Part shown: positions 701 to 35,607 of the stretch, piece after piece
How the letters are laid out: each line of letters begins with the position of its first letter
Numbering within the stretch: position 1 is the first letter of the stretch
Origin: an uncultured Acidobacteriota bacterium
GTDB lineage: Bacteria > Acidobacteriota > Thermoanaerobaculia > UBA5066 > Gp7-AA6
Reading direction: 5' to 3'
NCBI GenBank assembly: GCA_963764715.1
Contig: CAVXTP010000010.1
Span: 1-64,000, forward strand
DNA: 64,000 nucleotides
Made by a program: the position numbers and the translations under genes
Notes under the pieces: model-generated
What the model saw: the letters and a program-made list of their open reading frames with translations, nothing else
Database searches by the model: none
Told to the model about the DNA's origin: nothing

Positions 701-856
701 CGTTCGCGGCGCGCGAAGTCTCCCGAAGTAACCGAGGGAGGAGGCGCGCGCCGCGGGAGCGAGCGCGGAGCGAGAGGCGTCAGGCGGGCGGTCGAGCGCC
801 GTCCGCGAGCCGCCCGCCGGTGGCGAAGCCAGACCTCAAGCGCAGCGCGAGCGACG
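701..856 (+). repeat. Structured intergenic repeat element, copy 1 of 3 (GA-rich strand = +)
   Basis: Reverse complement aligns by eye with 25353-25512 and the + strand aligns with 35492-35607; internal stems 705-715/745-755 and 783-791/810-818. Confidence 0.85.
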
Positions 857-858
857 TG

Positions 859-3800
859 ATGGCGAAGTTCTTCATCGAGCGTCCGGTTCTCGCGAACGTC
901 ATCGCGTTCGTGACGATCCTGCTGGGCGCCGTGGCGCTGGGGGTGCTGCCGGTGTCGCAGTACCCGCCGATCACGCCGCCGACCGTCCAGGTGACGACGA
1001 CGTATCCCGGGGCCTCCGCGAAGACGCTCGTCGGAACCGTTCGCTCCGATCGAGCAGCAGGTCAACGGCGTCGAGAAGATGCTCTACATGCAGTCCAACT
1101 GCACGTCCGACGGCCGTTACACGCTCACGGTGACCTTCCAGGTCGGCACGGACCTCGACTTCGCCCAGGTGCTGGTCCAGAACCGCGTGTCCGCGGCCAT
1201 GGCGCAGCTCCCCGGCCGCCGTCCAGCAGCAGGGCGTCGTGACGAAGAAGAAGGAGACGTCGCCCCTCCAGATCATCACGCTCTCGTCGAAGAACGAGCG
1301 ATTCGACGCGCTCTTCCTGTCGAATTTCGCGACGCTCCAGCTCTCGGACAAGCTCGCGCGGCTTCCGGGCGTCGGCGACATCGTCGTGCTTCGGGGTCGG
1401 CGAGTACAGCATGCGCGTCTGGCTCGACCCCGAGCAGATGCGGCAGCGCTCGCTCATGCCTTCGGACGTCGTGAGCGCGCTCCAGTCCCAGAACGCCTAC
1501 GTCGCCGCCGGCCAGGTCGGGATGCCTCCGACGCCGGCCGGCCAGGATTTCCAGATCACGGCCAACGTGCCATCCTCGCTCTCGGACGCCTCGGAGTTCG
1601 GCGAGATCATCCTGAAGACCGCGGCGAACGGCCAGGTCACCCGCATCCGCGACATCGGCCGGGTGGAGCTCGGCGCGCGCAGCTACAGCCAGGTCTACCG
1701 CATGGACGGCAAGCCTGCGGGCGGGATCGCGATCTACCAGCTCCCGGGCGCCAACGCCCTCGACACGGCAAAGGGAGTCCGCCGGCTGCTCGCCACCCTC
1801 GCGCCCGGCTTCCCGCAGGGACTGGAGTATTCGATTCCGTTCGACACGACGACGTTCGTGAAGGAGTCGGTGACGGAGGTTTACCACACGCTGTTCGAGG
1901 CGGGGTTGCTGGTGCTGGTGGTGATCGTGGTGTTTCTGCAGGACTGGCGGGCGACGCTGGTGCCGGCGACGACGGTGCCGGTGACGATCATCGGGGCGTT
2001 TGCGGGGATGGCGGCGATGGGTTTTTCGATCAACCTGCTGACGCTGTTCGCGGTGGTGCTGGCGATCGGGATCGTGGTGGACGACGCGATCGTGGTGGTG
2101 GAGGGGGTGTCGCAGCACGTGGAGCGCGGCCAGACGCCGAAGCAGGGCGCGATCGACGCGATGAAGGAGCTGTTCGGCCCGATCATCGGGATCACGCTGG
2201 TGCTGATGTCGGTGTTTCTGCCGCCGGCGTTCATGCCGGGGATCACGGGGCAGATGTACCGGCAGTTCGCGCTGGTGATCGCGGTGACGGCGTTGATTTC
2301 GGCGGTGAACGCGTTGACTTTGAAGCCGACGCAGTGCGCGTTGTGGCTGAGGGCGCGGGACCCGCAGGCGAAGAAGGCGGTGTTTTTCCGGTGGTTCAAC
2401 GCGGTGTACGAGCCGGTGGAGCGGCGGTACGTGCGGGTGATCCGGTTCATGGTGGAGCGCAGCGGTCGGATGGCGGCGGCGGCGCTGGTGCTGATCGGGC
2501 TGGTCGGGTGGGGCCTGACCCGCGTGCCCACCGGCTTCATCCCCACCGAGGACCAGGGCTACGTGATGATCGCCGTTCAGATGCCGGACGGCGCGTCGCT
2601 CGAGCGCACGCAGAACGTCATGGACCGGGTCTCGAAGATCGGCCTCGAGACCCCCGGCGCGGCGCACGCGATCGCGATCGGCACGGGCGGCCCCTCGCCG
2701 CTCGACGGCGACGTGTCGCTCGCCAACGCCGGCATCGTCTACCTGATGCTGAAGAACTGGAGCGAGCGCGGGAAGGCGCAGGACCTCGAAGCCGTGGTCG
2801 GGCACCTCCGCCGGGCGCTCGCCGGGGTGCAGGAGGCCCGCACCCGCGTCCTGCGTCCCGGCCCCGATCCAGGGCCTCGGCGCCTCGAACGGCTTCCAGA
2901 TGCAGGTCGAGCTGACCGACGGGAGCTACGACTTCGAGCGGCTGCAGCGCGTGACCGACGAGATCGTCCCGAGGCCGGCCGCGCGCCCGAGGTCGTCGGC
3001 GCCTTCACCGCCTTCCGCGCGTCGGTGCCGCAGGTGACCCTGCGGGTCGACAAGACCCAGGCGGCGACGCGCAGCGTCAACGTCGGCGACGTCTACCAGA
3101 CCGTGCAGATCTACCTGGGCTCGAGGCTTCGTGAACCTCTTCACGCGCTACGGCCACAACTACATGGTGTATCTCCAGGCCGACCCGCTCCGCCGGCTCA
3201 ACGCCGACGACGTCAAGAACCTCTACGTGCGCGGCTCCGGCGGCGGCATGGCTCCGGTGGGCGCGCTCGCCGAGATTCGTCGCCGCCCTCGGGACGTCGG
3301 TCGTCTCGCTCTACAACCTGTTCCCGGCGGCGACGGTCAACGGCCAGCCGGCCGACGGGTACAGCTCCGGGCAGGCCCTCGACGCGATGGAGAAGATCGC
3401 GAACCGGGTGCTTCCCCGCGGCATGAGCTTCGAGTGGACGGCCATGTCCTACCAGGAACGGCTGGTGGGCAATTCCACTTACTTCATCTTCGCCCTCTCG
3501 CTCCTGCTCGTCTACTTCGCCCTCGCGGGGGCAGTACGAGAGCTGGATCATCCCGGCGGCCGTCATCCTGGCCGTGCCCATGGCCCTGCTCGGCACGGCG
3601 GCGGCGCTGCTCGGCCTCGGCTTCGCCAACAACATCTACGTGCAGATCGGCCTGGTGCTGCTGATCGCGCTGTCGGCCAAGAACGCCATCCTCATCGTCG
3701 AGATGGCGCGGGAGGGCCGGGAGAAGGGCCGGAGCATCGAGGAGGCCACGGTGGACGCCTCGCGGGTGCGCTTCCGGCCGATCCTGATGACGTCGTTCAC

Positions 3801-3996
3801 GTTCATCCTCGGGGTGCTGCCGCTCGTCCTCGCCACCGGCGCCGGCGCGGCGGCCCGGCGCTCCCTCGGCGTCGCGGTCGCGGCCGGAATGCTCGCGTCG
3901 ACCGGGCTCGCCGTCCTCTTCGTGCCCTCGCTCTACGTCGTCCTGCAGCGCTGGATCGAGCGGAGGAAGCCGGCCCGTGAGGCTCCAGAAAAGTAG
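859..3996 (+). CDS. RND (AcrB/HAE1) efflux permease, paralogue 1, several frameshifts (probably sequencing errors)
   Basis: MAKFFIERPVLANV start, AIGIVVDDAIVVVE, KNAILIVE, RFRPILMTS; pieced together from ORFs 694-1242, 1079-1474, 1239, 1411-3426, 3131, 3387 and 3574-3996. Confidence 0.9.
1817..2563 (+). repeat. ~745 bp near-identical direct repeat of 5117-5863 (offset 3300 bp)
   Basis: Lines 1921-2460 and 5221-5760 read identically; only a few substitutions near the edges. Confidence 0.95.
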
Positions 3997-4124
3997 GGGC
4001 GGCCCTTGCGGCCGCCGGCGAATGCAATGGCCGGGAGGGCGGGGGCGGTCCGACCACCAGCGGACGACCCCCGGCAGAAGGAGACGACGGCCGCAGGCCG
4101 TCGGCAACCCAGCCCCGCCCCTAC
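3993..4124. repeat. Pair of inverted GTAG-family REP-like palindromes
   Basis: GTAGGGGCGGCCCTTGCGGCCGCC at 3993-4016 (+) and ...CAGCCCCGCCCCTAC ending at 4124 (-). Confidence 0.75.
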
Positions 4125-4150
4125 GACCGGGGATTTGACGGCGCATTCCC

Positions 4151-7100
4151 GTGCTGGCGAAGTTCTTCATCGAGCGGCCGGTTCTCGCGAACGTCATCGC
4201 GTTCGTGACGATGCTGCTGGGCGCGGTGGCGCTGGGGGTGCTGCCGGTGGCGCAGTACCCGCCGATCACGCCGCCGACCGTCCAGGTCACGGCGAGCTAT
4301 CCCGGGGGCCAATTCGCCAGATGGTCGCCGAGACGGTCGCCGCTGCCGATCGAGCAGCAGGTCAACGGCGTCGAGGGCATGCTCTACATGTCGTCGACCT
4401 CGACCAACGACGGCCGCTACACGCTGACCGTCACGTTCGAGCGTCGGCACGAACCTCGACATGGCCCAGGTGCTGGTGCAGAACCGCGTCGCCGCTGGCC
4501 CTGGCGCAGCTTCCCCAGGACGTGCAGCAGCAGGGCGTGGTGACCAAGAAGAAGTCGACGGCCATCCTCCAGATCGTCACGCTGACTTCGAAGAGCGGCA
4601 CCTACGACGCGCTCTACCTCTCGCAACTACGCGACGCTCCAGCTGCGCGACGAGCTGGCGCGCGTGCCGGGCGTGGGCGACGTCACGGTCTTCGGCATCG
4701 GCGCATTACAGCATGCGGGTCTGGCTCGACCCGGAGCAGATGCGGCAGCGGTCCCTGACGCCGAGCGACGTCGTCTCGGCGATCCAGGCGCAGAACGCCT
4801 AGGTCGCCGCCGGCCAGATCGGCGCGCCGCCGGTCCCGGCCGGAGAGTCCTTCCAGCTCACGATCGACGTCGGCGGCAACCTCTCCCGGGCGGAGGAGTT
4901 CGAGGACGTCATCGTCAAGAGCGCCGGCGGGCAGATCACCCGGGTCCGCGACGTCGGCCGGGTCGAGCTCGGCGCCCAGACCTACGACCAGTTCTTCAAG
5001 ATGGACGACCGCGTCGCCGGCGGGATCGCGATCTACCAGCTCCCCGGGCGCCAACGCCCTCGACACCGCCGCCCGGGTGCGGTCGAAGATGACGGAGCTC
5101 GCCCGGGACTTTCCCGAGGGACTGGAGTACTCGATTCCGTTCGACACGACGACGTTCGTGAAGGAGTCGGTGAGCGAGGTTTACCACACGCTGTTCGAGG
5201 CGGGCTTGCTGGTGCTGGTGGTGATCGTGGTGTTTCTGCAGGACTGGCGGGCGACGCTGGTGCCGGCGACGACGGTGCCGGTGACGATCATCGGGGCGTT
5301 TGCGGGGATGGCGGCGATGGGTTTTTCGATCAACCTGCTGACGCTGTTCGCGGTGGTGCTGGCGATCGGGATCGTGGTGGACGACGCGATCGTGGTGGTG
5401 GAGGGGGTGTCGCAGCACGTGGAGCGCGGCCAGACGCCGAAGCAGGGCGCGATCGACGCGATGAAGGAGCTGTTCGGCCCGATCATCGGGATCACGCTGG
5501 TGCTGATGTCGGTGTTTCTGCCGCCGGCGTTCATGCCGGGGATCACGGGGCAGATGTACCGGCAGTTCGCGCTGGTGATCGCGGTGACGGCGTTGATTTC
5601 GGCGGTGAACGCGTTGACTTTGAAGCCGACGCAGTGCGCGTTGTGGCTGAGGGCGCGGGACCCGCAGGCGAAGAAGGCGGTGTTTTTCCGGTGGTTCAAC
5701 GCGGTGTACGAGCCGGTGGAGCGGCGGTACGTGCGGGTGATCCGGTTCATGGTGGAGCGCAGCGGCCGGATGGCGGCGGCGGCGCTGGTGCTGATCGGGC
5801 TGGCCGGCTGGGGCCTGACCCGCGTGCCCACCGGCTTCATCCCCACCGAGGACCAGGGCTACGCCATGGTCACGGTCCAGCTTCCCGACGGGGCCTCGCT
5901 CGAGCGGACCGAGAAGGCCATGGACGAGCTCGCGCGGATCTGCCGGGAGAACCCGGCCCTCGAGCGGACGATCTCGATCGGGGGCCTGTCGCCGCTCGAC
6001 AGCAACGCGTCGCTCGCCAACGCCGGGATCATCTACCTGATGTTCAAGGACTGGAGCCGCCGCGGGAAGGGGGAGGACCTGCTCTCGATCTACGAGGACC
6101 TCTCGGCCCGCCTCGCGCGGTTCCAGGACGCGCGCACGATGGTGCTCGTGCCGCCCCCGATCCAGGGGCTCGGCCTCTCGGGCGGCTTCCAGATGCAGGT
6201 CGAGCTGACCGACGGGAGCGCGGACTACGTCCGGCTGCAGCAGGCGGCCGACGCCATCGTCGAGCGCGCGAAGGCGGACCCGGCGATCCGGATGGCGTTG
6301 ACGCCGCTGCGCGCCGAGGTCCCGCAGATCACGATCCACGTCGACAAGACGCAGGCCGAGAACCTGGGAGTCGACGTCGGCGACGTCTACGCCACGGTGC
6401 AGGCGTACCTGGGCTCGAGCTTCGTCAACCAGTTCACGCGCTTCGGCCACCAGTACATGGTCTACGCCCAGGCGGACGCGCCGTTCCGGCGCGAGACGGG
6501 CAGCCTCTCCGGCTACTACATCCGCGCGAGCGGGGGGCAGATGGTGCCCCTCGGCACCGTGGCGCGGCTGGAGAAGACGCGGGGGCCGGCCGTCGTCACG
6601 CTCTACGATCTGTATCCCTCCGCCACCATCAACGGCGCGGCCAACGCCGCGTTCAGCTCGGGCCAGGCGATGGAGACGATGGAACGGATCGCCCGCGAGA
6701 CGCTGCCGCCCGGGATGACGTACGAGTGGACGGCGATGTCGTACCAGGAAAAGCTCGTCGGGAGCTCGACGTACGTGATCTTCGCCCTCGGGATCCTGCT
6801 CGTCTATTTCGTCCTCGCCGGACAGTACGAGAGCTGGGTCACGCCGGCGGCCGTCATCCTGGCGGTGCCTCTCGCGCTGCTCGGCACGGTCGGCGCCCTG
6901 CTCGGCCTGCACGTGGCGAACAACCTCTACGTGCAGATCGGCCTGGTGCTGCTGATCGCGCTGTCGGCGAAGAACGCCATCCTGATCGTCGAGATGGCCC
7001 TCGAGGGCCGGGCGGCGGGACGAAGCCTCGTCGACGCCACCGTGGAGGCCTCGCAGGCGCGCTTTCGTCCGATCGTCATGACCTCGTTCACGTTCATTCT

Positions 7101-7320
7101 CGGGGTGCTGCCGCTGCTGCTCGCGCGGGGCGCCGGGGCGAGCGCCCGCCGCTCCCTCGGCCTGGCGGTCTCGACGGGCATGCTCGCCTCGACCTGCCTC
7201 GCCGTCCTGTTCGTTCCGGCGTTCTTCGTCGTGCTGCGGGGCTGGGCCGAGCGAAAGCGGCCGGCCGCGGGCGCCGCGCCGGTCCCCACGGACCCTTCCG
7301 CCGTCTCCGGTCAAGGATAG
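4151..7320 (+). CDS. RND (AcrB/HAE1) efflux permease, paralogue 2; 5' part has frameshifts and an in-frame TAG at 4800
   Basis: LAKFFIERPVLANV start; uninterrupted 747 aa C-terminal ORF 5077-7320 with VDDAIVVVE, KNAILIVE, RFRPIVMTS. Confidence 0.9.
5117..5863 (+). repeat. Second copy of the ~745 bp RND internal repeat
   Basis: Direct comparison with 1817-2563. Confidence 0.95.
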
Positions 7321-7368
7321 AATCCGCGACCAGCCTCGAACCGATTGGAAACGAAAGGAGCTTCGTCG

Positions 7369-8094
7369 ATGCGCGATTTCTCGACCGGAGCGAAGCGTCG
7401 TTCACTGCTCGCGGCCCTGGCGGCCGGGCTCGCCGGGACCCTCGCCGCCCAACAGGGCGGGATGATGAAGGAAGTCATCCAGACCAAGCTGGCGGCGATC
7501 AAGCAGTCGCAGGCCGCCAACCAGGCGCAGCTGCACAAGTATGCGTGGACGGAAACGACCCAGGTCGCCCTGAACGGCCAGGTGAAGAACACCAAGCAGA
7601 TGAGCTGCCGCTACGGGCCGGACGGCCAGGTCGCCAAGACGCCCGTCGGGCCGCCGCCCGAGCAGCAGAAGATGGGACCGCTGAAGCGCCGCATCGTCGA
7701 AGAGAAGAAAGAGGAGATGGGCGAGTACATGCAGTCCGCCCGGGCCGTCATCGGAATGTACGTTCCGCCGCAATCCCAGAAGATGGAGCAGGCCTTCCAG
7801 GCCGGCAACGTCAGCCTCGACCGGCCGGGATCCGGGGAGGCCGGGCTCGTCTTCCGGAACTACGCGAAGCCGAACGACTCGATGAACCTCGACTTCAACA
7901 TGGCGACGAAGAAGCTCGCGGCGCTGAACGTCAACTCGTACATCGACGACCCGTCGCAGCCGGTCAGCCTCGCGGTGCAGTTCGCGATGCTGCCGGACGG
8001 AACGAGCTATCCGGCCAACACCGTGCTGAACGCGCCGGCCAAGGCGATCCAGGTCACGGTCACGAACTCGAACTACCAGAAGATCGCGCCGTAA
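7369..8094 (+). CDS. Secreted hypothetical protein
   Basis: AAAGGAG SD at 7354-7360, signal-peptide-like N-terminus (KRRSLLAALAAGLAGTLAA), typical codon usage, TAGAAT at 7318-7323. Confidence 0.8.
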   Translation: MRDFSTGAKRRSLLAALAAGLAGTLAAQQGGMMKEVIQTKLAAIKQSQAANQAQLHKYAWTETTQVALNGQVKNTKQMSCRYGPDGQVAKTPVGPPPEQQKMGPLKRRIVEEKKEEMGEYMQSARAVIGMYVPPQSQKMEQAFQAGNVSLDRPGSGEAGLVFRNYAKPNDSMNLDFNMATKKLAALNVNSYIDDPSQPVSLAVQFAMLPDGTSYPANTVLNAPAKAIQVTVTNSNYQKIAP

Positions 8095-9385
8095 CTTCGG
8101 CGGGGCGCGCGGCGGCATCGGGGACCGCCGCGTGCCGCTCGCGCCGCGAGAGAATCGTCGCCGCGCTCATGTCGGCGGTGACGTTGACGAGAGTCTTGAA
8201 GATGTCGGGGATCGTGTCGACCGCGTTGAGCAGGAGCACGGCCTCGATCGGGATGCCCGCGGCCAGGTAGGCCGGGATGCTCCGGATGGTCCCCATGCTC
8301 GGGATCGGGGCGGTGCTGAAGCTCAGGATCAGCTCGATCGCGAGGAATGCGGCGAGCTGTGTCGCGCCGAGCGGCCGCTGGAAGACGTGGGCGAGAAAGA
8401 GCAGCTTCACGGGCCCGGAGATCGTCATGTTCAGCTTGAACGACGCGACCGCGAGCGGCAGGACGAAGCCGGTGGCCGACGCGGGAAATCCGAGGTGCTC
8501 ACGGCCGCCGGAAACCATCGCCGGCAGCGACGCCATCGAGGACCGCGTGCTGACCGCGACGACCTGGGCCGGCGCGGCCCCCCGGGCGAAACGGCGGAGC
8601 GAGACCCGGCCCGCGACGAGCGTGAGCGGGTAGAGCAGGAGCGTCACGAAGAGGAGGACCGAGGAGACCAGGACGATCCAGACGGCGACGACGCCGGTCA
8701 CGCGGACGCCGGCCCGGAACGCGAAGGCGGCGCAGAGCGAGAAGACGCCGAGGGGCAGCAGCCGGAGCAGGAAGCCGACGATCGTCATCATCGCGTCGGC
8801 GAGCGCCCGGAACAGCCGGCCCAGAAGCTCCCGGGACTCGGTCTCGAGCCTCCGGACGCCGAAGGCGAAGAGCACGGTGAAGAGCAGGATCGGGAGGATC
8901 TCCCCGTTCGACGCCGCCTGGAAGATGTTGGTCGGGACGAGCGACAGCAGCCAGCCGGCGAGCGAGGCGGGCGCTCCGGCGCCCCGGTCGGGCGCCGGGC
9001 CAGAGGGTCCCCGGGCGAGGAACGCCGAAGCGGTTGCGTCGTCGATGGGGTAGAGGGCGACCGCCGGCGCCGTGACGGCGAAGGCGATCAGTCCGGCCCC
9101 GAGGAGCATCGCGCCGAAGAGCGCCACGGTGCGCACGCCGAGCGAGCCGATCGAGCCCTCGCGCCGCGCGCCGACGATTGCGGCGAGCGTCAGCGTGATC
9201 ACCAGCGGAAACGCGGCCATGCGGAGGGCCGCCACCCACATCTGGCCGACGACCGCGACGGCCTCGGCGAGCCGCCCGACCCACGGAGCGTCCGACCCGT
9301 GGAGCGCGATCCCGAAGGCGAATCCGCCGACGAGCGCGGCGAGCGCCGCGACGGTGGGGGAAAGCGACTTCGCGGGGGCCTTCAT
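8060..9385 (-). CDS. Dicarboxylate/amino acid:cation symporter (DAACS/GltP family)
   Basis: LVPTNIFQA, AVSTRSSMASLP, FVLPLAVASFK, DIFKTLVNVTADM motifs; multiple TM helices; start placed at MKAPAK. Confidence 0.85.
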   Translation of the reverse strand: MKAPAKSLSPTVAALAALVGGFAFGIALHGSDAPWVGRLAEAVAVVGQMWVAALRMAAFPLVITLTLAAIVGARREGSIGSLGVRTVALFGAMLLGAGLIAFAVTAPAVALYPIDDATASAFLARGPSGPAPDRGAGAPASLAGWLLSLVPTNIFQAASNGEILPILLFTVLFAFGVRRLETESRELLGRLFRALADAMMTIVGFLLRLLPLGVFSLCAAFAFRAGVRVTGVVAVWIVLVSSVLLFVTLLLYPLTLVAGRVSLRRFARGAAPAQVVAVSTRSSMASLPAMVSGGREHLGFPASATGFVLPLAVASFKLNMTISGPVKLLFLAHVFQRPLGATQLAAFLAIELILSFSTAPIPSMGTIRSIPAYLAAGIPIEAVLLLNAVDTIPDIFKTLVNVTADMSAATILSRRERHAAVPDAAARPAEVTARSSGSSSS

Positions 9386-9393
9386 GCGTCTCT

Positions 9394-10623
9394 CTACGGA
9401 ATCAGGTTTCGCTCGACGGCCGGCCGCAGCCTTCGTGCGATGCGCCAGAGACCCCGCTTCGGGCGGAGCCAGTCGAGCGCCTGGATCATCGGTCTGATGA
9501 GACGGGATCTCCGGCGACAGACCGCGATCGCTTCGGCGATTTCCGTGCGGCCCGCCGCGCGGGCTCGGAGCTCGATGTCGCGATAAAGGCGTTGGTACGC
9601 CGGACCGCGGAGATAGACGTGTCGAACCCGATCGAGATCGACGGGTCGCGGAAAGACCGAGCACCGTGGCAGGGCGCCGATCACTTCCAGGTTCAGCATC
9701 GCGAGGTAGCACTTCCTGCAGTCGCAGCAATTTTCGGCGGACCCCGAAAGGAAGCACACTCGAAGGGACCGCATCGCGACGTCGGACCGTGACACGTATT
9801 CGGTCTTTTGGCTGCGCCGGATTCCGGCTCCGTCGTGAAGGAATCGCGTGGCGCTCGTCGACCAGAGGGGATCGGTCTCGGGATGCGACCCCCACGGCTT
9901 CACTGGCCCGCTCTCATGCGTGGCGGCGATGTAGATCGAGTGAAAGAGGGGCTCGAGTGCGAGGCCGACGGCAGCGAGCGCGCCGCCGTGAGAGACCTGC
10001 CCCCAGCGGGCTTTACGAAACCGGAGCGTCCGGAGGTTCGTCGTGACGGCCAGAAGTGGCTTGCCGAGCTCGCCGGCCGCCTGCGCGAGCCGGTCACGAA
10101 GCCGGTGAAACTCCTCCTCGGGAGCCTCGAGCGGAAGGTCGAATCCGCCGACCCACAGAAGCCGGTCGATCGTCGGGGAGGCGACGCGGTCCTGCGCTTC
10201 GGCGTTGCGGAGGACTGTATAGAAGGAATCGATGCCTCCCGAAAAGAATGCCGCCGTTTCCCTCGGGGCGGAGCCGGGACGAGACGGCGCGCGGGCGGTG
10301 TGGATCGAGATCGCGCGGAGCTCCGGATACCTCTTGCGGTACCACTCCGTCCAGGTCTTCACGATCCGCTCGGCCCCGTCCGCGAGCCTGGGATCGACCG
10401 GGACGCCGAGGCGAAGGTCCTCGCCGAGCGTGGCCGCGAGCGGCAGGAGGCAGGCGAGCCAGGGGTTTCCGGACAGGCTCAGGGACGCGGCGTGCTCCTC
10501 GCGGACTTCGAACCAGTAGGACTCCGGCGCCCCGGGCCGGTCGTCGTAGACGACGTCTCCGACGAGACGCACGTATCCCCTCGCGAGAGGAGATTCCTCG
10601 ATGCGAACGGAAATCAGTTCCAT
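9394..10623 (-). CDS. PP-loop (adenine nucleotide alpha-hydrolase) protein with QueC-like Cys4 motif, function unknown
   Basis: FFSGGIDS PP-loop and C-x8-C-x2-C-x2-C (VCFLSGSAENCCDCRKC). Confidence 0.75.
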   Translation of the reverse strand: MELISVRIEESPLARGYVRLVGDVVYDDRPGAPESYWFEVREEHAASLSLSGNPWLACLLPLAATLGEDLRLGVPVDPRLADGAERIVKTWTEWYRKRYPELRAISIHTARAPSRPGSAPRETAAFFSGGIDSFYTVLRNAEAQDRVASPTIDRLLWVGGFDLPLEAPEEEFHRLRDRLAQAAGELGKPLLAVTTNLRTLRFRKARWGQVSHGGALAAVGLALEPLFHSIYIAATHESGPVKPWGSHPETDPLWSTSATRFLHDGAGIRRSQKTEYVSRSDVAMRSLRVCFLSGSAENCCDCRKCYLAMLNLEVIGALPRCSVFPRPVDLDRVRHVYLRGPAYQRLYRDIELRARAAGRTEIAEAIAVCRRRSRLIRPMIQALDWLRPKRGLWRIARRLRPAVERNLIP

Positions 10624-10764
10624 GACGTCAAATGGCGCCGGTTTCTCCGTCAGACTGTGTGCATCAAGGATACGACGGTGGGGCGGCCCGGCGGAGGCGG
10701 ATTCGGCAGGCGGCGGACGGCGGACGGCCGCCGGGGTCCTGTTCGGAGACCGCCCGCCCCCGTT

Positions 10765-11094
10765 TCAGAGCGAGATGCTCGAGACCTCGACCGCCTGCGG
10801 GCCGGCCGCCGAGCAGGTGGCGTGGAGATTGACCATCTCGACGAGCAGCGCGAGCCGCTCGAGAAACGTCTCGACCACGGTCGCCCCGTCGCTCGCCCGG
10901 CAGGTGAAGGACACGAGGCCCTTGCGCTGGTCCAGCACGTAGCGCTTGAACAGCTCGGAGTCCTTCTGGACGTTCTGGAACGACTCGAGCCAGCGCTCGT
11001 CGACGGTTCCGGAAAGGCTGACCACGTGGCGCTGGAACAGGGGCCCCAGGATCTCTTCCCTCATGGCGGCTCGGTCCACGGCGACGTCGTACAT
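10765..11094 (-). CDS. Small hypothetical protein (109 aa)
   Basis: Good codon usage, globular composition, candidate sigma54 promoter upstream. Confidence 0.7.
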   Translation of the reverse strand: MYDVAVDRAAMREEILGPLFQRHVVSLSGTVDERWLESFQNVQKDSELFKRYVLDQRKGLVSFTCRASDGATVVETFLERLALLVEMVNLHATCSAAGPQAVEVSSISL

Positions 11095-11144
11095 GCTGAC
11101 TTCTCACACCCGGCCGAGCCGGGCGCCTCTCGCCACGTACAGTG

Positions 11145-11161
11145 AGCAAGGCGAACGCCAG
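11145..11161 (-). promoter_or_regulatory. Putative sigma54 (-24/-12) promoter
   Basis: Minus strand CTGGCGTTCGCCTTGCT matches TGGCAC-N5-TTGCW with exact GG/GC spacing, about 50 nt upstream of ATG 11094. Confidence 0.55.
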
Positions 11162-11297
11162 CGCCTAAGGCATTGAAAACACGTGGCTTCGTTTCGACCA
11201 AGGCAGTCCGACTGACGAGAAACGTCCGTCAGGCGGCTCGGATCGCCGCGGATTGTCACCGGTCGGGTCGATCGAAATGCCGGTGGGGTGCCCGCGA

Positions 11298-11774: not shown

Positions 11775-11788
11775 GACGACCTCCGCTT

Positions 11789-16446: not shown

Positions 16447-16451
16447 TCCCG

Positions 16452-23346: not shown

Positions 23347-23381
23347 CGGCACCAGGCCCCCGGAGATAAGATCCCGCCCCT

Positions 23382-24695: not shown

Positions 24696-24704
24696 GTTTT
24701 CCGG

Positions 24705-25352
24705 ATGACCACGATGGACGACGAGCACGAGGGAGGCGGCATGGTTCTGGTTCCCATGGTGATCGAGCAGACGAGCCGGGGCGAGCGGGCGTACGACATC
24801 TACTCCCGGCTCCTCAAGGACAACATCATCTTCCTCGGCCAGCCGGTCGACGACACGATCGCCAACCTGATCATCGCGCAGATGCTCTTCCTCGAGTCCG
24901 AGAACGCCGAGAAGGACATCGCCTTCTACATCAACTCCCCGGGCGGCTCGATCACGGCCGGCATGGCGATCTACGACACCATGCAGTACGTCAAGAACGA
25001 CGTGTCCACGATCTGCGTCGGCCAGGCGGCGTCGATGGCGGCGGTGCTCATGGCGGCCGGCGCGGCCGGCAAGCGCTACTCGCTGCCGAACTCGCGTTTC
25101 CTGATCCACCAGCCTCTCGCCTACGGCATGCAGGGCCAGGCCACGGACATCGAGATCCACGCGAAGGACCTGCTCAAGATGCGGGAGCGCATCAACCAGA
25201 TCCTGGCGCTGCACACGGGCCAGCCGGTGGAAAAGGTCGGGAAGGACACCGACCGCGATTACATCCTCGAGGCCGAGGACGCCAAGAAGTACGGCCTCGT
25301 CGACGCGATCTACCACCGGAGAGACGACGTCGCGCTCAAGGCAGCCGGGTAA
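24705..25352 (+). CDS. clpP: ATP-dependent Clp protease proteolytic subunit (start may be 24741, which has a GGAGG SD)
   Basis: [40 protein letters not shown]. Confidence 0.98.
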
Positions 25353-25512
25353 CCGTCGCTCGCCTCGCATTCCGGGGTCTGCTTCGCACCGGCGAGCGGC
25401 TCGCCGGGATGCCGGCTCGACCGCTCGCCTGACCCCTCCATGCGGGCTCGCTCCCGCGGCGCGAGCCTCCTCCCTCCCTTCGGTCGGGAGACTTCTCGCG
25501 CCGCGAGCGGAT
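25353..25512 (-). repeat. Structured intergenic repeat element, copy 2 of 3 (GA-rich strand = -)
   Basis: Homologous to 701-856 and 35492-35607; stems 25391-25399/25421-25429 and 25455-25465/25495-25505. Confidence 0.85.
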
Positions 25513-25695
25513 GAGCCAGCGGGGCGCTGGAAACGAGGTCGCGGCTCGGGGAGCTGGTCCAAGAATCGCATCTGACTCATCGGGCGTACGTCACGTTGGC
25601 GGCGGTTGGTGAAGGGCGGCCGCGGGGAAGTGGAATCCCCTTGACGGCCGGGACGTTAACCCCGTCGGGTATGCTAGATTTTGGACGCGGATCGG

Positions 25696-25725
25696 TTGAC
25701 GGGGAGGGAACCCCGACCCTAGAAT
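25696..25725 (+). promoter_or_regulatory. Putative sigma70 promoter of clpX
   Basis: TTGACG-N18-TAGAAT, followed by GGAGG SD and ATG 25749. Confidence 0.6.
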
Positions 25726-25748
25726 GGTCGCATCCCTCCGGAGGCTGA

Positions 25749-26993
<1,245 letters not shown>

Positions 26994-27053
26994 GGCCGGC
27001 CGCCCCGTTTCGTCCCGCGCCTCGATTCGGAACCCAAAAGGACACACCGACCA

Positions 27054-29453
<2,400 letters not shown>

Positions 29454-29600
29454 GGCCTCGACCGAAAGGGTCTGTTTTGATCTAGAATCGCTGCCTCGGG
29501 CCCCGACCGGGCTCGCCCCCGGCCCCGCGCCCCCCGAATCCGCTCCCGTGAACTTCGCGGCGGTCCCCGCCGATATTCAACACAGCAAGAGGACAGACAG

Positions 29601-30956
29601 ATGGCCAGAAGAAAAGGCACCAACGAGTCCGACGTCGAGACGCTCGAAGCGCCTCCGGAAGGGCTGCCGGATACGACCGGCGAGGAGGTCGCCGTCGAGC
29701 CCGGAGACACCCTGGACATCCGGGCGCTCCACGAGATCAAGATCCCGCAGCTGCTGAAAATCGCCAAGGACCTCGAGGTCGAGAACGCGACCGGGATGCG
29801 CAAGCAGGACCTGATCTTCAAGATCCTGCAGGCGCAGACCGAGAAGAAGGGACTCATCTTCTCGGAGGGGGTCCTCGAGTGCCTTCCCGACGGCTTCGGG
29901 TTCCTGCGCGCCCCCGAGTACAACTACCTGCCTGGGCCGGACGACATCTACGTCTCGCCCTCGCAGATCCGCAAGTTCGACCTGCGCACCGGCGACACGG
30001 TCTCCGGCCAGATCCGCCCGCCGAAGGAAGGGGAGCGCTACTTCGCCCTGATCAAGGTCGAGGCGGTCAACTTCGAGCACCCCGACGTCGCGCGCGAGAA
30101 GATCTTCTTCGACAACCTGACGCCCCTGTACCCGGAGGGCCGGATCCGGCTCGAGACGTCCAACATGACGTCCCGCGTGCTCGACCTCGTGGCTCCCGTG
30201 GGCAAGGGCCAGCGCGGGTTGATCGTCGCGGCGCCCCGCACCGGCAAGACGATGGTCCTGCAGGCGCTCGCCAACTCCATCTCGACGAACCACCCCGAGA
30301 TCACGCTCATCGTCCTCCTGATCGACGAGCGACCCGAGGAGGTCACGGACATGCAGCGCTCCGTCAAGGGTGAGGTGATCTCCTCGACCTTCGACGAGCC
30401 GGCCGCCCGCCACGTGCAGGTCGCGGAGATGGTCATCGAGAAGGCCAAGCGCCTCGTCGAGCACAAGCGCGACGTCGTGATCCTGCTCGACTCGATTACG
30501 CGCCTCGCCCGCGCCTACAACGCGATCGTTCCGCCCTCGGGCAAGGTCCTGTCGGGCGGCGTCGACTCCAACGCCCTGCAGCGGCCCAAGCGCTTCTTCG
30601 GCGCCGCGCGCAACGTCGAGGAGGGCGGCTCGCTCACCATCATGGCGACCGCGCTCATCGACACCGGATCCCGCATGGACGACGTCATCTTCGAGGAGTT
30701 CAAGGGCACCGGCAACATGGAAGTCCACCTCGACCGCAAGCTCGTCGACAAGCGCGTCTTCCCGGCGATCGACATCAACAAGTCGGGCACGCGCAAGGAG
30801 GAGCTCCTCATGGACAAGCAGGAGCTCAACCGCGTGTGGGTGCTGCGGAAGGTCCTCAACCCGCTCTCGACCGTCGAGGCCATGGAGCTGCTGACCGAGA
30901 AGCTCGAGAAGACCAAGACGAACGCGGAATTCCTGAGCCTGATGCAGCAGGGGTGA
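29601..30956 (+). CDS. rho: Transcription termination factor Rho
   Basis: [35 protein letters not shown]. Confidence 0.98.
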
Positions 30957-31747
30957 CCGCGCCGGCCGTGCGCATCTCCGTCGTCGACTTCCTGAACGCC
31001 CGGCCGCTGACGTGGGGCCTGCTCCACGATCCGCCGCCGGGCGTCTCCGTCTCCCGGGACGTTCCCGCCGTCTGCGCCGCGAAGCTCGCCTCGGGGGAGG
31101 TCGATGTGGGCCTGATCCCCTCGATCGAATACCAGCGGATCCCGGGGCTCAAGGTCGTGCCGGGCCTCGGCATCGCGGCCTCGTCCGAGGTGAGATCGGT
31201 CCTCCTCGTCTCCGACGTCTCGCGCGAGAAGATCGGCTCGGTCGCGCTCGATCCGGCGTCGCGGACCTCCGCCGCGCTCACACGGATTCTCTTGAAACGT
31301 GTGTATGGGCTGGAGCCCAGGTATCAGGAGGCAGGGGACAGGCGACAGGAGCCCACGGACGCCCGGCTCATCATCGGAGACCCCGCCCTGAAGACGCGCC
31401 TCAACGGCCACGTCGTCCTGGACCTGGCTTCCGAGTGGCGAGCCTTTTCGGGCCATCCTTTCGTATTTGCTTTCTGGGCGGCGCTCCCGGCGGCCGCCAC
31501 GCCGGAGCTCGCGGCCCTCCTCCGGCGCTCCTACGAGGCCGGCCTCGCGCATTTCGATGGCATGGTGCGGGAGGAGTCGGCGGCGTCCGGCCTCGCCGCC
31601 CCCGTCGTCGAGGACTATCTGCGCCACGCTCTCCACTTCGAGCTCGACCGGGGGGACCACGAAGGTCTCGAGCTCTTCTACCGCCTCGCCGCCGAGGACG
31701 GGCTCATCCCGGCCGCGCGGCCGCTCGAGTTCACGCCGGCGCTTTGA
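30953..31747 (+). CDS. mqnA: Chorismate dehydratase (futalosine pathway)
   Basis: [35 protein letters not shown]; GTGA overlap with the rho stop. Confidence 0.9.
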
Positions 31748-31850
31748 GCTCTTCGCCGAGAGCTTCGCCCGCGCCTCCCCATCCCTGATGCAAACGGCCC
31801 TTGTGTGGCCGGGGCAGGTGGGGAAAGGTGGCTGAAGTCGACATTCAGCC

Positions 31851-34214
31851 GTGATCGAGCAGAGGTTCGGGCACTACCGCGTGGTCGAGAGGATCGGCGC
31901 CGGGGGGATGGGAGAGGTGTACCGGGCGCACGACGAGCAGCTCGGCCGGGACGTGGCGATCAAGGTGCTGCCGGCGGAGGCGCTGGGGGATTCCGCGGCG
32001 CGGTTGAGGCTGCTTCGGGAGGCGCGGTCGGTGGCGGCGCTCAACCATCCCAACGTGTGCACGATTCACGAGGTGGGCGAGGCCGACGGCCAGGCGTACA
32101 TCGCCATGGAGCTGGTCGAGGGTAAGCCGCTGGACCTGTTGATCCCGGCCGAGGGTCTGCCGGCCGAGCGGGTGCTCGACTACGGCCTGCAGATCGCGGA
32201 GGCGGTGGCGCACGCGCACGAGCGGGGGATCGTGCATCGCGATCTCAAGCCCTCGAACGCGCTGGTGACGCCGCAGGGTCGGGTGAAAGTCCTGGACTTC
32301 GGGCTGGCCAAACAGGTGGTCGGGCAGGATGTCGGGGAGGCGAGCACGGCGTCGCACGGGACGCTGACGCAGCCGGGCGCGGTGGTGGGGACGCTGCCGT
32401 ACATGGCGCCCGAGCAGTTGCGGGGAGAGACGGCCGACGCGCGAAGCGACGTCTGGTCTCTGGGCGTGGTGCTGTACGAGATGGCGGCGGGAGCGAGGCC
32501 GTTTCGGGGACAGACGGGGTTCGAGGTGAGCTCGGCGATCCTGAAGGAGTCGCCGGCGCCGCTGCCCGGGGAGCTTGGCGTCGTCGTCACGCGCTGTCTG
32601 GAGAAGGAGCCGGGCAAGCGCTTCCAGCGTGCAGGGGAGGTGCAGGCGGCGCTGAAGGTCGTCGAGAGCGGCGCGGCGATGGCGCCCCGGCCGGTCTCGC
32701 GCAGGAGGCTCCCGGGTGGCCGGCTGGTGGCGGCCGGCGGGGCGTTGCTTGCAGTCCTCGCTCTCCTGGTCGGGCTCGACGTGGCCGGCTTGCGGCGGCG
32801 GATGGCGGGAGGGCTCAGAGCCCCGGCCGGGCCGATCAAGCTGGCGGTGTTGCCGTTTGCGAACCCTTCCGGCGACCCGCAGCAGGAGTACTTCAGCGAC
32901 GGGCTGACCGAGGAGATGATCACGCAACTCGGGCGTCTGCACCCGGAGCGGCTCGGCGTCATCGCCCGGACCTCGGCCATGCGCTACAAGAAGAGTGACA
33001 AGCCGGTCGACCAGATCGGCCGGGAGCTCGGCGTGGACTACGTCCTGGAGGGCAGCGCGCGGCGGGAGGCCGGCCGGGTGCGGATCACGGCCGAGCTCAT
33101 CCAGGTGCGGGACCAGACACAACTCTGGGCCGAGAGCTACGAGCGCGACCTGGCCGGGATCCTGGCCCTCCAGAGCGAGGTGGCGAAAAAAGTGGCCGGC
33201 GCCCTGGCGCTGAAGCTGCTGCCGGCCGAGCAGACTCGTCTGGCGAATGCCCGCACCGTCGACGCCGAAGCCTACGACGCGTACCTCCAGGGCCTCCACC
33301 ACTGGTACAAGCTGACGCCGGGCGAGCTCGAGACCGCACTGCGGTACTTCGACCTGGCGCTGGTGAAGGATCCGAGTTACGCGCTTCCGTACGCGGGGAT
33401 TGCGTTGGTCTGGGCCGGTCGACAGCAGATGGGGTACACGCCTCCCGGCGAGGCCACGCCGAAGGCGAGGGCGGCGGCGCTGAAGGCGGTGGAGCTAGAT
33501 GACACGGTTGCAGAAACCCATTACGCACTGGCGGTTGTCAGAACGTGGAGCGAGTGGGACTGGGCCGGTGCGGAGATGGAGTTCAAGCGCGCCATCGAGC
33601 GGAACCCCAGCTTTCCAGACGCGCGCGCTTACTACTCGCATCTCTTGATGAACCTGCGGCGTCCGGATGAAGCGATGCTGCAAATGAAACGCGCCCTCGA
33701 GCTGGATCCGTTCAAAGCCCTCTTTCGCACCTTGTACGGAGTCGACCTCATGTACGTGCGTCGGTACGATGATGCCGTCGCGCAGGCACGCGCCGCGCTG
33801 CGAACGGCACCAGACGATGCCATCGCCAACGCCTTGCTCTGGTGGGCATTCAGCGTGAAGGGGATGCACAAAGAGGCTCTGACGGCAGCCAGGGCGTACA
33901 TGAAGCTTGTGTATGACGACCCTGGTGTCGAGGAAGCCATCGAACGGGGTTACACGGAGGCGGGTTACCGGGGAGCCATGAGGCGCGCGGCCGAGGCCCT
34001 GGTGGCGCACTTTCACAAGACCTACGCGAGCCCTTTCGACATCGCAAGCCTGTATGTGGAAGCCGGGGAAAAAGCGCGGGCGGTCGAATGGCTCGAGAAA
34101 TGCCTCGAGGTGCGCGATCCCAACATGCCCTACATTGGATGGCCGATGTTCGACAGCCTGCGCTCGGAGCCGCGTTACCACGACCTGTTGCGCCGGATGA
34201 AGCTTCCGGGATGA
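31851..34214 (+). CDS. Ser/Thr protein kinase with TM helix, TolB_N-like domain and TPR repeats
   Basis: [31 protein letters not shown]...[13 protein letters not shown]-like tail. Confidence 0.95.
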
Positions 34215-34257
34215 ACGGGCCTCCGAGCGGCCCGACCGTCGTTGTTAGAATGCCGTC

Positions 34258-35433
34258 GTGACCGGTGGCCGGACCTCGGAAATGCTGGATCGCGCGCTCG
34301 CGGGCGAGCGCCTCTCTCCCGTGGACGCCGTGGCGCTGCTCGAGGAGGGCAACCTTCTCGCGCTCGGGGCGGCAGCCAACGAGATCCGCAACCGCCAGAA
34401 CGACCCCTCGATCGCGACCTACATCGTCGACCGGAACATCAACTACACCAACGTCTGCGTCTACCGGTGTCAGTTCTGCGCGTTCTACCGGCCGTCGGCC
34501 GAGCACCCCGAGGCCTACGTGCTCTCGCACGAGCAGATCGGCGAGAAGATCCAGGAGACGCTCGACCTCGGCGGGACGGGCGTCCTGCTCCAGGGCGGCG
34601 TCCACGCGGACCTTCCGTTCTCGTTCTACGAGGACATGTTCCGCTACATCCGGTCGACCTTCCCGACGATCCACCTCCACGCGCTCTCGGCGCCCGAGGT
34701 CTACTTCCTGCAGAAGATCACGAAGTGGCCGATGCGGGACGTCATCGCGAGGCTGAAGGACGCCGGGCTCCAGTCGATCCCGGGAGGTGGCGCCGAGATC
34801 CTCGAGGACTCGGTCCGGAAGCGCATCTGGTCGCTCACCAAGGCCCCGACGGAGAAGTGGGTCGACGTCCACGAGACGGCCCACGGCCTCGGCATGCGGA
34901 CGACGGCCACGATGATGTTCGGAGTGGGGGAGACCTACGCTCAGCGCGTCGAGCACATGCAGGTCGTGCGCGACCTTCAGGACCGGACGGGAGGCTTCAC
35001 GGCGTGGATCCCGTGGACGTTCCAGAAGGAGAACACGGAGCTCGATGGAAAGGTGGACGAGGCCGGCGGCTTCGAGTATCTGAAGACGCTTGCTGTCTCG
35101 CGCCTCTTCCTCGACAACGTCCGGCACGTCCAGGGCTCCTGGGTCACGCAGGGCCCGAAGATCGGCCAGGTCTCTCTGTCGTTCGGCGGCGACGACCTCG
35201 GCTCGATCATGATCGAAGAGAACGTCGTCTACGCCGCCGGCGCCCGGAACCGGATGACCCAGGACGAGATGCGCCGGATCATCTCGGACGCCGGCTACAC
35301 GCCCGTCCAGCGCCGCACCCTCTACGACGCCTGCAAAGACCCCTGCTGCACCGCCCCCATCCCGCAGCCGAAACCGCGCGCGGGTCTACCCGTCCACGGC
35401 TCCGACCTCGACTCTTCTCTCGCCTCGGCCTGA
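34258..35433 (+). CDS. mqnC: Cyclic dehypoxanthinyl futalosine synthase (radical SAM)
   Basis: DRNINYTNVCVYRCQFCAF, SIPGGGAEIL, QGSWVTQG, GSIMIEENVV. Confidence 0.9.
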   Translation: MTGGRTSEMLDRALAGERLSPVDAVALLEEGNLLALGAAANEIRNRQNDPSIATYIVDRNINYTNVCVYRCQFCAFYRPSAEHPEAYVLSHEQIGEKIQETLDLGGTGVLLQGGVHADLPFSFYEDMFRYIRSTFPTIHLHALSAPEVYFLQKITKWPMRDVIARLKDAGLQSIPGGGAEILEDSVRKRIWSLTKAPTEKWVDVHETAHGLGMRTTATMMFGVGETYAQRVEHMQVVRDLQDRTGGFTAWIPWTFQKENTELDGKVDEAGGFEYLKTLAVSRLFLDNVRHVQGSWVTQGPKIGQVSLSFGGDDLGSIMIEENVVYAAGARNRMTQDEMRRIISDAGYTPVQRRTLYDACKDPCCTAPIPQPKPRAGLPVHGSDLDSSLASA

Positions 35434-35445
35434 CGGACATCCCGA

Positions 35446-35470
35446 GGGCGGCCACAAGGGCCGCCCCTAC
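35446..35470 (-). repeat. GTAG-family REP-like palindrome
   Basis: Minus strand GTAGGGGCGGCCCTTGTGGCCGCCC. Confidence 0.8.
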
Positions 35471-35491
35471 ATCCCGGAGCGCCGTCCCTGC

Positions 35492-35607
35492 ATCATCCGC
35501 CGCGGGAGCGGGAGCGTGGCGAGGGGTCAGGCTCGCGGTCGAGCCCACAGGCGAGCCGCGAGCCGGTGCGCCGAAGGCGCAGACCCTGAGGTAGCTCCCG
35601 CGACGGT
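35492..35607 (+). repeat. Structured intergenic repeat element, copy 3 of 3 (shorter variant lacking one hairpin)
   Basis: GAGGGGTCAGGCTCGCGGTCGAGC...GCGAGCCGCGAGCCGGTGCGCCGAAGGCGCAGACCC aligns to the other copies; closing stem 35497-35509/35594-35606. Confidence 0.82.

Follow-up and report, generated by a model that had tools for sequence, protein, structure and literature searches.

Structured intergenic repeats that stand behind open reading frames (ORFs), some of them giving the stop codon of the gene they follow, are already known, as set out in the sections of PMC3733652 that we draw on. The same sections report repetitive extragenic palindromes (REPs) at most 20 bp from ORF 3' ends, acting as RNA, and report no dedicated transposase for REPs with a CGTC tag. 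They also describe the 'TIRYT' (terminal inverted repeat-associated tyrosine transposase) arrangement, a Y1 transposase gene between its own inverted repeats. In integrons, the bottom strand of the attC site is the strand that is recombined (PMC2727003 and PMC5027507, in the sections used here).

We analyzed a 64,000-nucleotide stretch (the window) from an uncultured Acidobacteriota bacterium (assembly GCA_963764715.1, contig CAVXTP010000010.1, positions 1 to 64,000), which carries three copies of a ~160-nt structured repeat family (units of 155-165 nt) that we label E160. The host genome, G000, is a draft in 26 contigs that total 4.36 Mb at ~70% G+C. The window corresponds to its C10:1-64000; other positions in this genome are likewise given by contig. 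We put the probability at roughly 0.5 that E160 is a fold-dependent DNA site of the kind represented by REPs, bacterial interspersed mosaic elements (BIMEs) and attC, which is read single-stranded by a recombinase supplied in trans, is rarely inserted behind gene ends and is re-assorted by conversion and crossing-over.

An initial annotation of the window had described three dispersed intergenic segments as copies of one unnamed branched element. All the sequences that it quoted were found at their coordinates, and the segments align with each other beyond chance, as members of one family. Iterated nhmmer searches of the host genome converged at 39 copies (E 1e-17 to 1e-34), dispersed over 18 of the 26 contigs, and a covariance model (R1), for which 36 copies were used, recovered the same 39. 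Copy 1 (703-856, plus strand; 122.4 bits with R1) is a full unit with hairpin 1 at 703-757 and domain 2, the three-way junction, at 759-856. Copy 2 (25353-25507, minus strand), detected by both nhmmer and R1, is also full, while copy 3 (35497-35606, plus strand; 101.2 bits) has domain 2 and a remnant of the 3' arm of hairpin 1. Elsewhere in the genome, the copies at C19:23317-23495 and C20:15500-15678 are nearly identical together with their flanks, and one lies at a contig end; this pair is probably one locus assembled twice, and the true count may be 38.

By BLAST, E160 was detected in all 36 same-genus genomes, more weakly in all seven genomes of a sister family (f3, the unpublished G042 included), and family f2 yielded weak, partial matches alone, in 12 of its 17 genomes. 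The R1 model, at E ≤ 1e-6, detected E160 in 40 of 41 same-genus genomes, at 0 to at least 67 copies each, the top counts being lower bounds. The sister-family genome G040 gave ~85 model matches, in two rearranged architectures made from the same modules. An exact-pattern scan of a species collection matched many phyla; an nhmmer check kept 47 of 49 loci titled Acidobacteriota or Thermoanaerobaculia, and E160 was confirmed in none of the 31 loci from other phyla. Judged by these searches, E160 appears to be a lineage-specific family in one group of soil Acidobacteria. Rfam 15 matched only tRNA on the window at gathering score, and 11 copies returned two unrelated weak matches at E ≤ 1, in agreement with the earlier description of the family as unnamed. 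A 160-nt branched unit with the motif grammar, polarity and TAA donation of E160 was not met in Rfam or in the full-text literature, the latter searched with text queries rather than the element sequence, the supplementary lists of REP and terminal inverted repeat (TIR) families in PMC3733652, Acidobacteria included, lying outside this scope.

On its GA-rich strand, E160 forms two domains, an imperfect hairpin of ~55 nt (domain 1, hairpin 1) and a three-way junction of ~100 nt (domain 2). RNAalifold assigned 36 pairs, 18 of them with compensatory change, and extension of this fold by hand gave 54 Watson-Crick or wobble pairs and six G.A positions. The outer stem of hairpin 1 runs for 14 bp, the inner three of which are variable, and is followed by A.G, G.A and T.G; beyond these come 5 bp, G.A and A.G, 2 bp and a GAA loop. 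In the outer stem of domain 2, G.A and Watson-Crick pairs alternate among copies, and the stem closes a junction with invariant single bases (A, GGT, A). The first junction arm consists of a 9-bp stem with two or three freely varying pairs, a bulged T and a C-G pair, and ends in a tandem G.A/A.G (the CGAG/CGAG box) with a short variable tip. The second arm forms a hairpin of 5-6 bp capped by a GAA, GCA or GGA loop. The elements first noticed in the window copies are all present as described: the 9-bp stems, paired in each copy (783/810, 25391/25421 and 35530/35556), the 11-bp stem with a C-G to A-T swap (705/745 versus 25455/25495), which copy 3 lacks, the small hairpins with a GAA loop, and CGAG facing CGAG. 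An outer helix closing the whole unit (CCGT/ACGG) was considered and rejected, as the end changes failed to compensate consistently; this check, like those of the upstream motif and of near-identical copies given below, is a by-eye reading of alignments. The 5' sequence logo decays gradually, leaving the 5' limit of the unit fuzzy.

Over 36 aligned copies, 92.3% of 1909 cells were paired, compared with 82.7% in shuffles and 34-48% with slid partners. Two-sided change was seen at 28 of the 54 pairs (shuffle mean 15.0), and 167 cells were changed on both sides (46.5 in shuffles); none of 500 shuffles reached any of the five covariation measures. E160 copies are related by descent, so that counts taken over them are not of independent events; for this reason the shuffle control overstates the significance of the covariation, a fault from which the slid-partner control is free. 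The variation was concentrated in few pairs, such as columns 99:132 and 100:131 with three or four pair types each, and stem positions beside them were 95-100% invariant. Furthermore, long invariant stem sequences and the junction bases were kept across the genus and into the sister family. The invariant stems with a few variable but paired spots indicate that most of E160 is read sequence-specifically and that pairing alone is required elsewhere. A kept fold with invariant stems is the pattern expected of a site that a protein reads as a folded single strand.

The two strands were not equivalent. Over the named pairs, the non-Watson-Crick combinations on the GA-rich strand were G.A 288, G.T 124, A.C 37 and C.T 1. 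For all 36 copies, with RNA and DNA parameters alike, this strand gave the lower minimum free energy (means of -106.4 versus -95.2 kcal/mol for the CT-rich strand with RNA parameters, and -60.8 versus -56.8 kcal/mol with DNA parameters). Both strands lay far below shuffles (z -5.4 to -7.4; with RNA parameters, -7.35 for GA and -5.37 for CT). The selected, strand-asymmetric fold proposed from three segments was therefore recovered over the 36 copies. The loops on the GA-rich strand are G-N-A closed by C-G, with N varying. They fit the sheared G.A triloop, which is familiar above all from DNA minihairpins. On this strand, purines make up 73% of the unpaired columns, corresponding to 73% pyrimidine on the mRNA-sense strand. 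Because the strand asymmetry lies mostly at positions common to all copies, it was inherited rather than re-evolved.

We surveyed the position of 113 copies relative to genes, 39 from the host genome and 74 from other genomes. The 3' end of E160 (...GCGACGG) lay within 5 nt of the stop codon of an opposite-strand gene in 46 copies and at 6-30 nt in four more, while the 5' end abutted a co-directional stop in only two copies and a divergent start in three. The same polarity was observed at the 3' ends of tRNA-Gln genes (two loci) and of one transfer-messenger RNA (tmRNA) gene, and directly past the T-run of terminator-like hairpins; adjacency to terminators and several motif counts were read by eye. 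The tmRNA case is a copy in another Acidobacteriota genome (L163:5904-6415) that abuts the 3' end of a gene with the tag peptide ANNSNFALAA. The GA-rich strand is thus antisense to the gene that E160 follows. In the window, copy 2 begins with its 3' end (GCGACGG on the minus strand) immediately past the TAA stop (25350-25352) of clpP, whose product is ClpP (PF00574), and its GA-rich strand is antisense to this gene. The 3' end of copy 3 is 1 nt from the stop (CTA 35608-35610, minus strand) of a phospholipase D (PLD)-family gene (PF13091). Exceptions exist: copy 1 is sense-oriented between the TGA stop of an upstream ORF (663-665) and the ATG start (859-861) of an AcrB-family gene, and a copy in the clpP-clpX spacer of G003 is also sense-oriented. 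These neighbors, the two abutted stops and the start of the resistance-nodulation-division (RND) gene, agree with the initial annotation.

The junction appears to involve the stop codon itself. A TTA, CTA or TCA trinucleotide stood within 6 nt of the 3' end in 63 of 112 copies, usually at offset 0-1; in 48 of these it closes a frame with coding-type GC, and in 15 it is no stop. At the 48 junctions the stops were TAA 25, TAG 15 and TGA 8, compared with TAA 234 (7.9%), TAG 987 and TGA 1729 in 2950 confident frames of the host genome. Seven comparisons of an occupied site with a site free of a copy or remnant gave an occupied allele of TAA in five cases and TGA in two, the other alleles being mostly TAG. 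The clpP stop is TAA in the host genome, while 27 other genomes have TAG (23), TGA (3) or TAA (1); the ClpP C-terminus, ...LKAAG*, is identical in the host genome and 26 of these 27, with LKAAV in L210. A convergent gene pair at C10:233 kb has TAA in the host genome and G023, and TAG (three) or TAA (one) in empty genomes. In three more occupied/empty pairs, TAG or TGA in the empty allele corresponds to TAA in the occupied one, and two occupied sites have TGA with TAG in the empty allele. A tandem array in G006 retains the trinucleotide (TTA, CTA or TCA) at internal junctions where there is no gene end.

The stop codon therefore seems, from these alignments, to travel with the E160 unit. A unit ending in ...GCGACGGTTA would land so that its TTA replaces or overlaps the stop of the host gene, and the trinucleotide would drift later. 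The changes from TTA to CTA or TCA are single transitions that preserve the stop, and stops in the host genome are mostly TGA and TAG. The alternative to TTA arriving with the unit is a short A/T-rich target, since TAT stands beside E160 at two non-stop sites and is also found in the empty allele.

Comparisons of orthologous sites showed E160 to be dynamic DNA, with occupied and empty sites, independent insertions and arrays. The clpP-clpX spacer, named in the initial annotation as a place for such a comparison, is free of E160 in 23 of 27 other genomes. G025 and G023 have the orthologous copy with a different gene-proximal third, G023 with an extra domain 2, and G003 has an independent copy ~70 nt downstream in the opposite orientation, with no clear target-site duplication (TSD). 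The site of copy 1 is occupied in a four-species clade only (G000, G023, G017 and G025); the junction was recovered in 17 other genomes without E160, several of them with other repeat families. In relatives, the adaptor-transporter spacers L229-L242 hold at least two such families, built on CCCCTCACCCC...GGGAGAGGG and TGTCATCCCGAGC...GGGATCCCT. No TSD was found in the occupied/empty pairs. CGTGAT at both ends of copy 1 was considered as a TSD and rejected on the evidence of the orthologues in G017, G023 and G025 and of other sites. Species-specific gains and further polymorphic sites were also observed.

The orthologues of copy 1 differ by whole modules, either the hairpin-1 type (G023, G025) or the junction arms (G017, G025), and we read these swaps as probable gene conversion from other copies. 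Similarly, 36 copies combine 10 kinds of hairpin-1 tip and 12 of junction-arm tip in 24 ways. Head-to-tail arrays were found in G019 (four 175-nt units) and G006 (a longer array of half hairpin 1 plus domain 2), and short terminal duplications of the 3' end were seen. Between orthologous copies, disruptive changes were observed alongside compensatory ones. The host genome has two probable deletion remnants, at window 60430-60442 and C22:60.3 kb, which retain the last bases of E160 and TTA as a working stop. In the window remnant (plus strand), the first E160 bases are fused to the last (TTCGCGACGG) and followed by TTA, which acts as the TAA stop of a minus-strand ORF (60440-61945). At the orthologous site, G025 has a full copy where the window has the remnant (L355 versus C10:60389-60464). 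The remnant reading rests on this orthologue comparison because the 10-mer is by itself frequent in coding DNA, and its use as a genome-wide marker was dropped on the same ground.

On the preferred reading, new copies would appear when, on rare occasions, a structure-specific recombinase acting in trans inserts a folded single strand, and they would then be homogenized and shuffled by gene conversion and unequal crossing-over. As to the enzyme, an integron integrase, a Y1 enzyme of the REP-associated tyrosine transposase (RAYT) or TIRYT type, and another enzyme appear roughly equal candidates, each of low weight. We searched for these enzymes in the host genome and its relatives. The host genome has five matches to Y1_Tnp (PF01797), namely a 172-aa gene, three genes of 320-336 aa and one fragment. 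The 172-aa gene (C17:16419-16937) is RAYT-like and flanked by classical GTAG REPs. The three longer genes (C6:495300-496274, C4:28583-29593 and C7:33483-34445), with Y1_Tnp and a weak DnaA-C match, each lie between their own 31-57-nt inverted repeats holding GGGGTCAG, which is the TIRYT arrangement. This 8-mer is not over-represented in the host genome (272 seen versus 363 expected from composition), and GGGGTCAGG occurs within E160 in 12 of the 39 copies. The TnpB domain (PF07282) gave no match, reverse transcriptase (PF00078) gave none in five genomes, and Y2 transposase (PF04986) gave none in five genomes, a weak result since the control genomes were also silent. The window holds no cognate enzyme, in line with the initial annotation.

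Several results weigh against such a recombination site, and bear above all on the idea of an HUH (Y1) nuclease put forward in the initial annotation, for which we found no direct support. E160 was not found within 3 kb of any of the five PF01797 genes, nhmmer gave no significant E160 match at 17 Y1 loci, and no transposase gene flanked by E160 was found. Three genomes that are 95-97% complete, G019, G021 and G027, have no PF01797 match, yet they hold 30, 3 and 40 copies. Among the matches listed, the mean number of copies was 27.9 in 23 genomes with a long Y1 gene and 20.5 in 13 without, and co-occurrence of E160 with long Y1, RAYT and IntI showed no dependence. The integrase gene is present in 14 of the 17 f2 genomes, which have at most weak partial E160 matches, in G031 with 0 copies and in G021 with 3; by the present data, neither an integron integrase nor a Y1 enzyme is tied to E160. 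A replication-strand bias was not evident in the host genome (13 versus 15 copies by local GC skew, a weak test in 26 contigs). An autonomous parent or a solo-module pair was not found there, where few partial copies stand beside the full ones. Near-identical dispersed copies were not seen beyond the C19/C20 pair in a reading made without pairwise identities, and hence there is no sign of recent transposition. Sporadic G.T and A.C departures from pairing were about equal by eye, so that recent mutations show no strand preference. In addition, pairing could persist by whole-arm gene conversion without selection on each copy, and genes were called by a crude in-house caller from open frames with coding-type codon-position GC.

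These points leave room for E160 working as RNA, either as a CT-rich structure in the read-through 3' untranslated region (a terminator, 3'-end protector or processing site) or as a GA-rich antisense small RNA, a possibility that we regard as unlikely. The fixed-polarity place behind stops and the ends of tRNA and tmRNA genes fits a 3'-end RNA element, and REPs are reported as 3'-end RNA actors in the cited sections of PMC3733652. Additionally, both strands fold far better than shuffles, the unpaired positions on the mRNA-sense strand are mostly pyrimidine, and a subset of copies has a common GCGGCAC motif 13-15 nt upstream. However, the strand contained in read-through transcripts of the abutted gene is the poorer folder in every one of the 36 copies, its non-Watson-Crick positions would be C.U and C.A, and the loops obey G-N-A on the opposite strand; we know of no recognised loop motif of the U-N-C form. 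No T-run follows the structure, sense-oriented copies exist, no Rfam family corresponds, and a range of 0 to at least 67 copies among species of one genus would be odd for a needed RNA. The upstream motif was also considered as a sigma-54-type promoter and set aside, as its GC fits the -12 element in few copies only by our reading. Two further RNA interpretations were rejected: Rho loading on the mRNA-sense strand, which with 43% C but 33% G and much structure is untypical, and hammerhead- or kink-turn-like folds, from which the 1-nt bulge set off from the G.A pairs by a C-G pair differs and for which no ribozyme model matched. RNA contig sets X15, X16, X17 and X20, which derive from many organisms, covered only conserved coding parts of clpP and clpX with near-zero depth on E160; being unstranded, they weigh neither for nor against an RNA.

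It is improbable, in our view, that E160 is an old, immobile and functionless repeat, with pairing kept passively by gene conversion and intrastrand repair and with its place reflecting tolerance, even though the rarity of near-identical copies, the module differences between orthologues and the 24 module combinations, the copies in genomes without Y1 genes, and the disruptive changes alongside compensatory ones would all suit such a relic. Tolerance by itself does not explain a junction of one polarity at offset 0-2 from the stop. Nor does a relic account for the independent insertion in opposite orientation in the same clpP-clpX spacer, the species-specific gains, or the invariant stems and junction bases kept across the genus and into the sister family, and its G.A and G.T positions were not 'repaired' to Watson-Crick pairs. 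Very improbable is a MITE, a miniature transposable element with inverted repeats, moved by a DDE transposase. The ~160-bp size and the intergenic spread fit a MITE, and there is weak complementarity between the 5' end (...CCGT(T)CGCG) and the 3' end (CGCGACGG). This complementarity extends over 5-9 nt with an indel, where TIRs of at least 10 nt are expected, its two-end compensation is inconsistent by eye, the occupied/empty pairs lack a TSD, and the host genome has no full-length parent.

Other repeats stand near E160 in the window. A GTAG-type REP hairpin ending in ...GCCGCCCCTAC (35446-35470, plus strand) lies just upstream of copy 3, and by eye ~15 of the 39 copies have such a REP ~40-60 nt upstream of their 5' end. 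The GTAG-REP core CGCCCCTACG, a 10-mer, occurs 200 times in the host genome, often in inverted pairs, and many of these REPs give the TAG stop of the preceding gene; cores in the window are at 3993, 4116, 35462, 38521, 49358, 52803 and 52843. Three further dispersed families in the genome derive from the inverted repeats of the long Y1 genes. Repeats of this type are located in the window at 41329/41418, 58816-58871 and 59885, the last two flanking an ordinary ketopantoate reductase gene (58928-59881). Palindromic GGGGTCAGGTCTTCATTTTTC... repeats of ~110 nt (for example C17:36361, C15:160013, C12:12981 and C1:30120) centre on TTCGCGACGG, the same ten bases as the start-end fusion of E160. At C12 ~137,210-137,300, a run of GGCAGGA-type heptamers stands directly past an ORF ending in ...YYKGKQAINT*, which we take to be a candidate rpmF, and G023 has an E160 copy at this place. 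At least two genes in the draft look frame-broken, the AcrB-family gene of the window and intI. The AcrB-family gene runs from 859 to ~3980; its Pfam match in the starting frame covers residues 1-61 alone, and it goes on in other frames (ORFs 1239-2915, 1411-3426, 3131-3664 and 3387-3980), reflecting either a pseudogene or assembly indels.

Few parts of bacterial genomes are as poorly understood as small structured repeats, most families, CGTC REPs included, having no known enzyme or mode of spread. E160 offers unusually many handles on this problem: its fold is large, branched and strongly covarying, its strands are clearly distinguished, its polar stop junction is precise to the nucleotide and seemingly brings TAA, and its copies number in the hundreds across dozens of related genomes, many of them in occupied/empty pairs. 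The host genome also contains four Y1 transposase genes and a large integron whose attC sites have the grammar of E160. Were the RNA explanation right, E160 would be a portable 3'-end module of new shape.

REPs, BIMEs and REP doublets forming hairpins (REPINs) agree with E160 in many respects (PMC3733652, as far as the sections used describe them). All are high-copy, intergenic and lineage-specific, lie close behind the 3' ends of convergent or co-directional genes, and are without TSDs; their termini can give the stop codon, their stems include G.T pairs, and they occur as head-to-head pairs and in clusters. The 39 copies in the host genome and the 46 of 113 within 5 nt of a stop give E160 the REP trait of many intergenic copies near ORF 3' ends. 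As in CGTC REPs, the CGTC stands on the gene-sense strand, at the gene-proximal end only, and no dedicated transposase was found. E160 differs from a REP in its 155-165 nt, two domains and 54 named pairs, compared with a single palindrome of 20-40 nt with a GTAG or CGTC tag, in its strict polarity to the gene, and in its richness in tandem G.A pairs and GNA triloops; unlike GTAG REPs, it supplies TAA rather than TAG and flanks no Y1 gene. Palindrome-associated transposable elements (PATEs) derived from the insertion sequences IS200/IS605, and the TIR repeats of TIRYTs, share with E160 the absence of TSDs, subterminal secondary structure, strand specificity and a short conserved flank on one side. 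E160 has no tnpA/tnpB parent (PF07282 without matches; no Y1 gene with E160 ends) and no lagging-strand bias, and its flank is one of three trinucleotides (TAA, TAG or TGA), or TAT at two non-stop sites, where the IS200/IS605 type has a fixed 4-5-nt target 5' of the left end.

The attC-type recombinase proposed in the initial annotation led us to the chromosomal integron of the host genome (C15:201,000-225,692, at the contig end, plus C17:600-10,600), which has ~42 attC sites of 76 nt (GCCTAAC...GTTAGGC), those on C17 extending over 0.6-8.9 kb, and an intI gene (C17:9551-10538) that is split over three frames and co-oriented with the cassettes. Four further attC-like sites stand at C22:42-47 kb. 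The integrase model TIGR02249 matched full-length in G006 and G040 and exceeded its curated cut-off in 41 of 61 genomes of the order. Of 36 cassette ORFs called, 30 are on the minus strand, so that the plus strand is the attC bottom strand. For attC and E160 alike, it is the single strand in its folded form that is meaningful. On the bottom strand of the resident attC sites, the items of the GA-rich strand of E160 recur in the same order: first GGGTCAG, then a tandem-G.A box (CGAGC...GCGAG) next to an extrahelical T, and last a minihairpin, CGA-(CC/GC)-GAA-(GG/GC)-GAG, whose covarying closing pair is also the same. Both stand directly behind an ORF with that strand antisense, and in both an ORF-proximal G-TTA supplies the TAA of the ORF (four cassette examples). 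The likeness in motif grammar, polarity and TAA donation gives the proposed attC-type recombinase a lead, but the attC core sites are absent: E160 lacks the inverted RYYYAAC/GTTRRRY core pair (R''/R') and any 7-bp R box. G-TTA is found at the 3' end of a minority of copies, the 5' side has the consensus C-(A/T)-T-C-C-G-Y, and GCCTAAC/GTTAGGC is invariant in 20 of 20 resident attC sites.

Quantitatively, the likeness was modest. Local alignment of consensus sequences scored 42 for the GA-rich strand against attC, compared with 28.3 ± 4.9 for shuffles (3 of 500 reached 42), and 22 for the CT-rich strand, compared with 23.5. Hairpin 1 on the GA-rich strand was matched by the attC model R2 in 31 of the 39 copies (E ≤ 0.1 within 6.9 kb), which is close to one observation because the copies are homologous, and the 10-23 bits are near noise at whole-genome scale. 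An attC nhmmer profile found no E160 copy, and E160 copies were not among the scored candidates of a whole-genome R2 run. An attC site is a single imperfect hairpin, ~57-141 nt in length, in which some bases are extrahelical, the central spacer is unpaired and the terminal structure is variable. Taken by itself, hairpin 1 can be aligned over its full length to the attC model, the extrahelical T lies in domain 2, and the whole ~160-nt unit is branched and about twice as long as attC. Furthermore, E160 is dispersed at ordinary genes (clpP, the PLD-family gene, tRNA-Gln, tmRNA) and not beside intI, and the C15/C17 attC arrays contain no copy.

It is conceivable, if doubtful, that E160 is an offshoot of the attC lineage, an ORF-less folded-strand site that would spread outside the integron and land in attC polarity behind the stops of ordinary genes with a TAA. 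A real attC link would bear on the birth of integron cassettes, for which we know of no accepted mechanism; Leon and Roy (2009) reportedly proposed group IIC-attC introns for cassette origin. An attC-offshoot E160 would be a natural route for a resident gene to gain an attC-like 3' partner, and such a partner would be a candidate first step in making new cassettes. We treat attC as the closest structural relative of E160, and not as its family.

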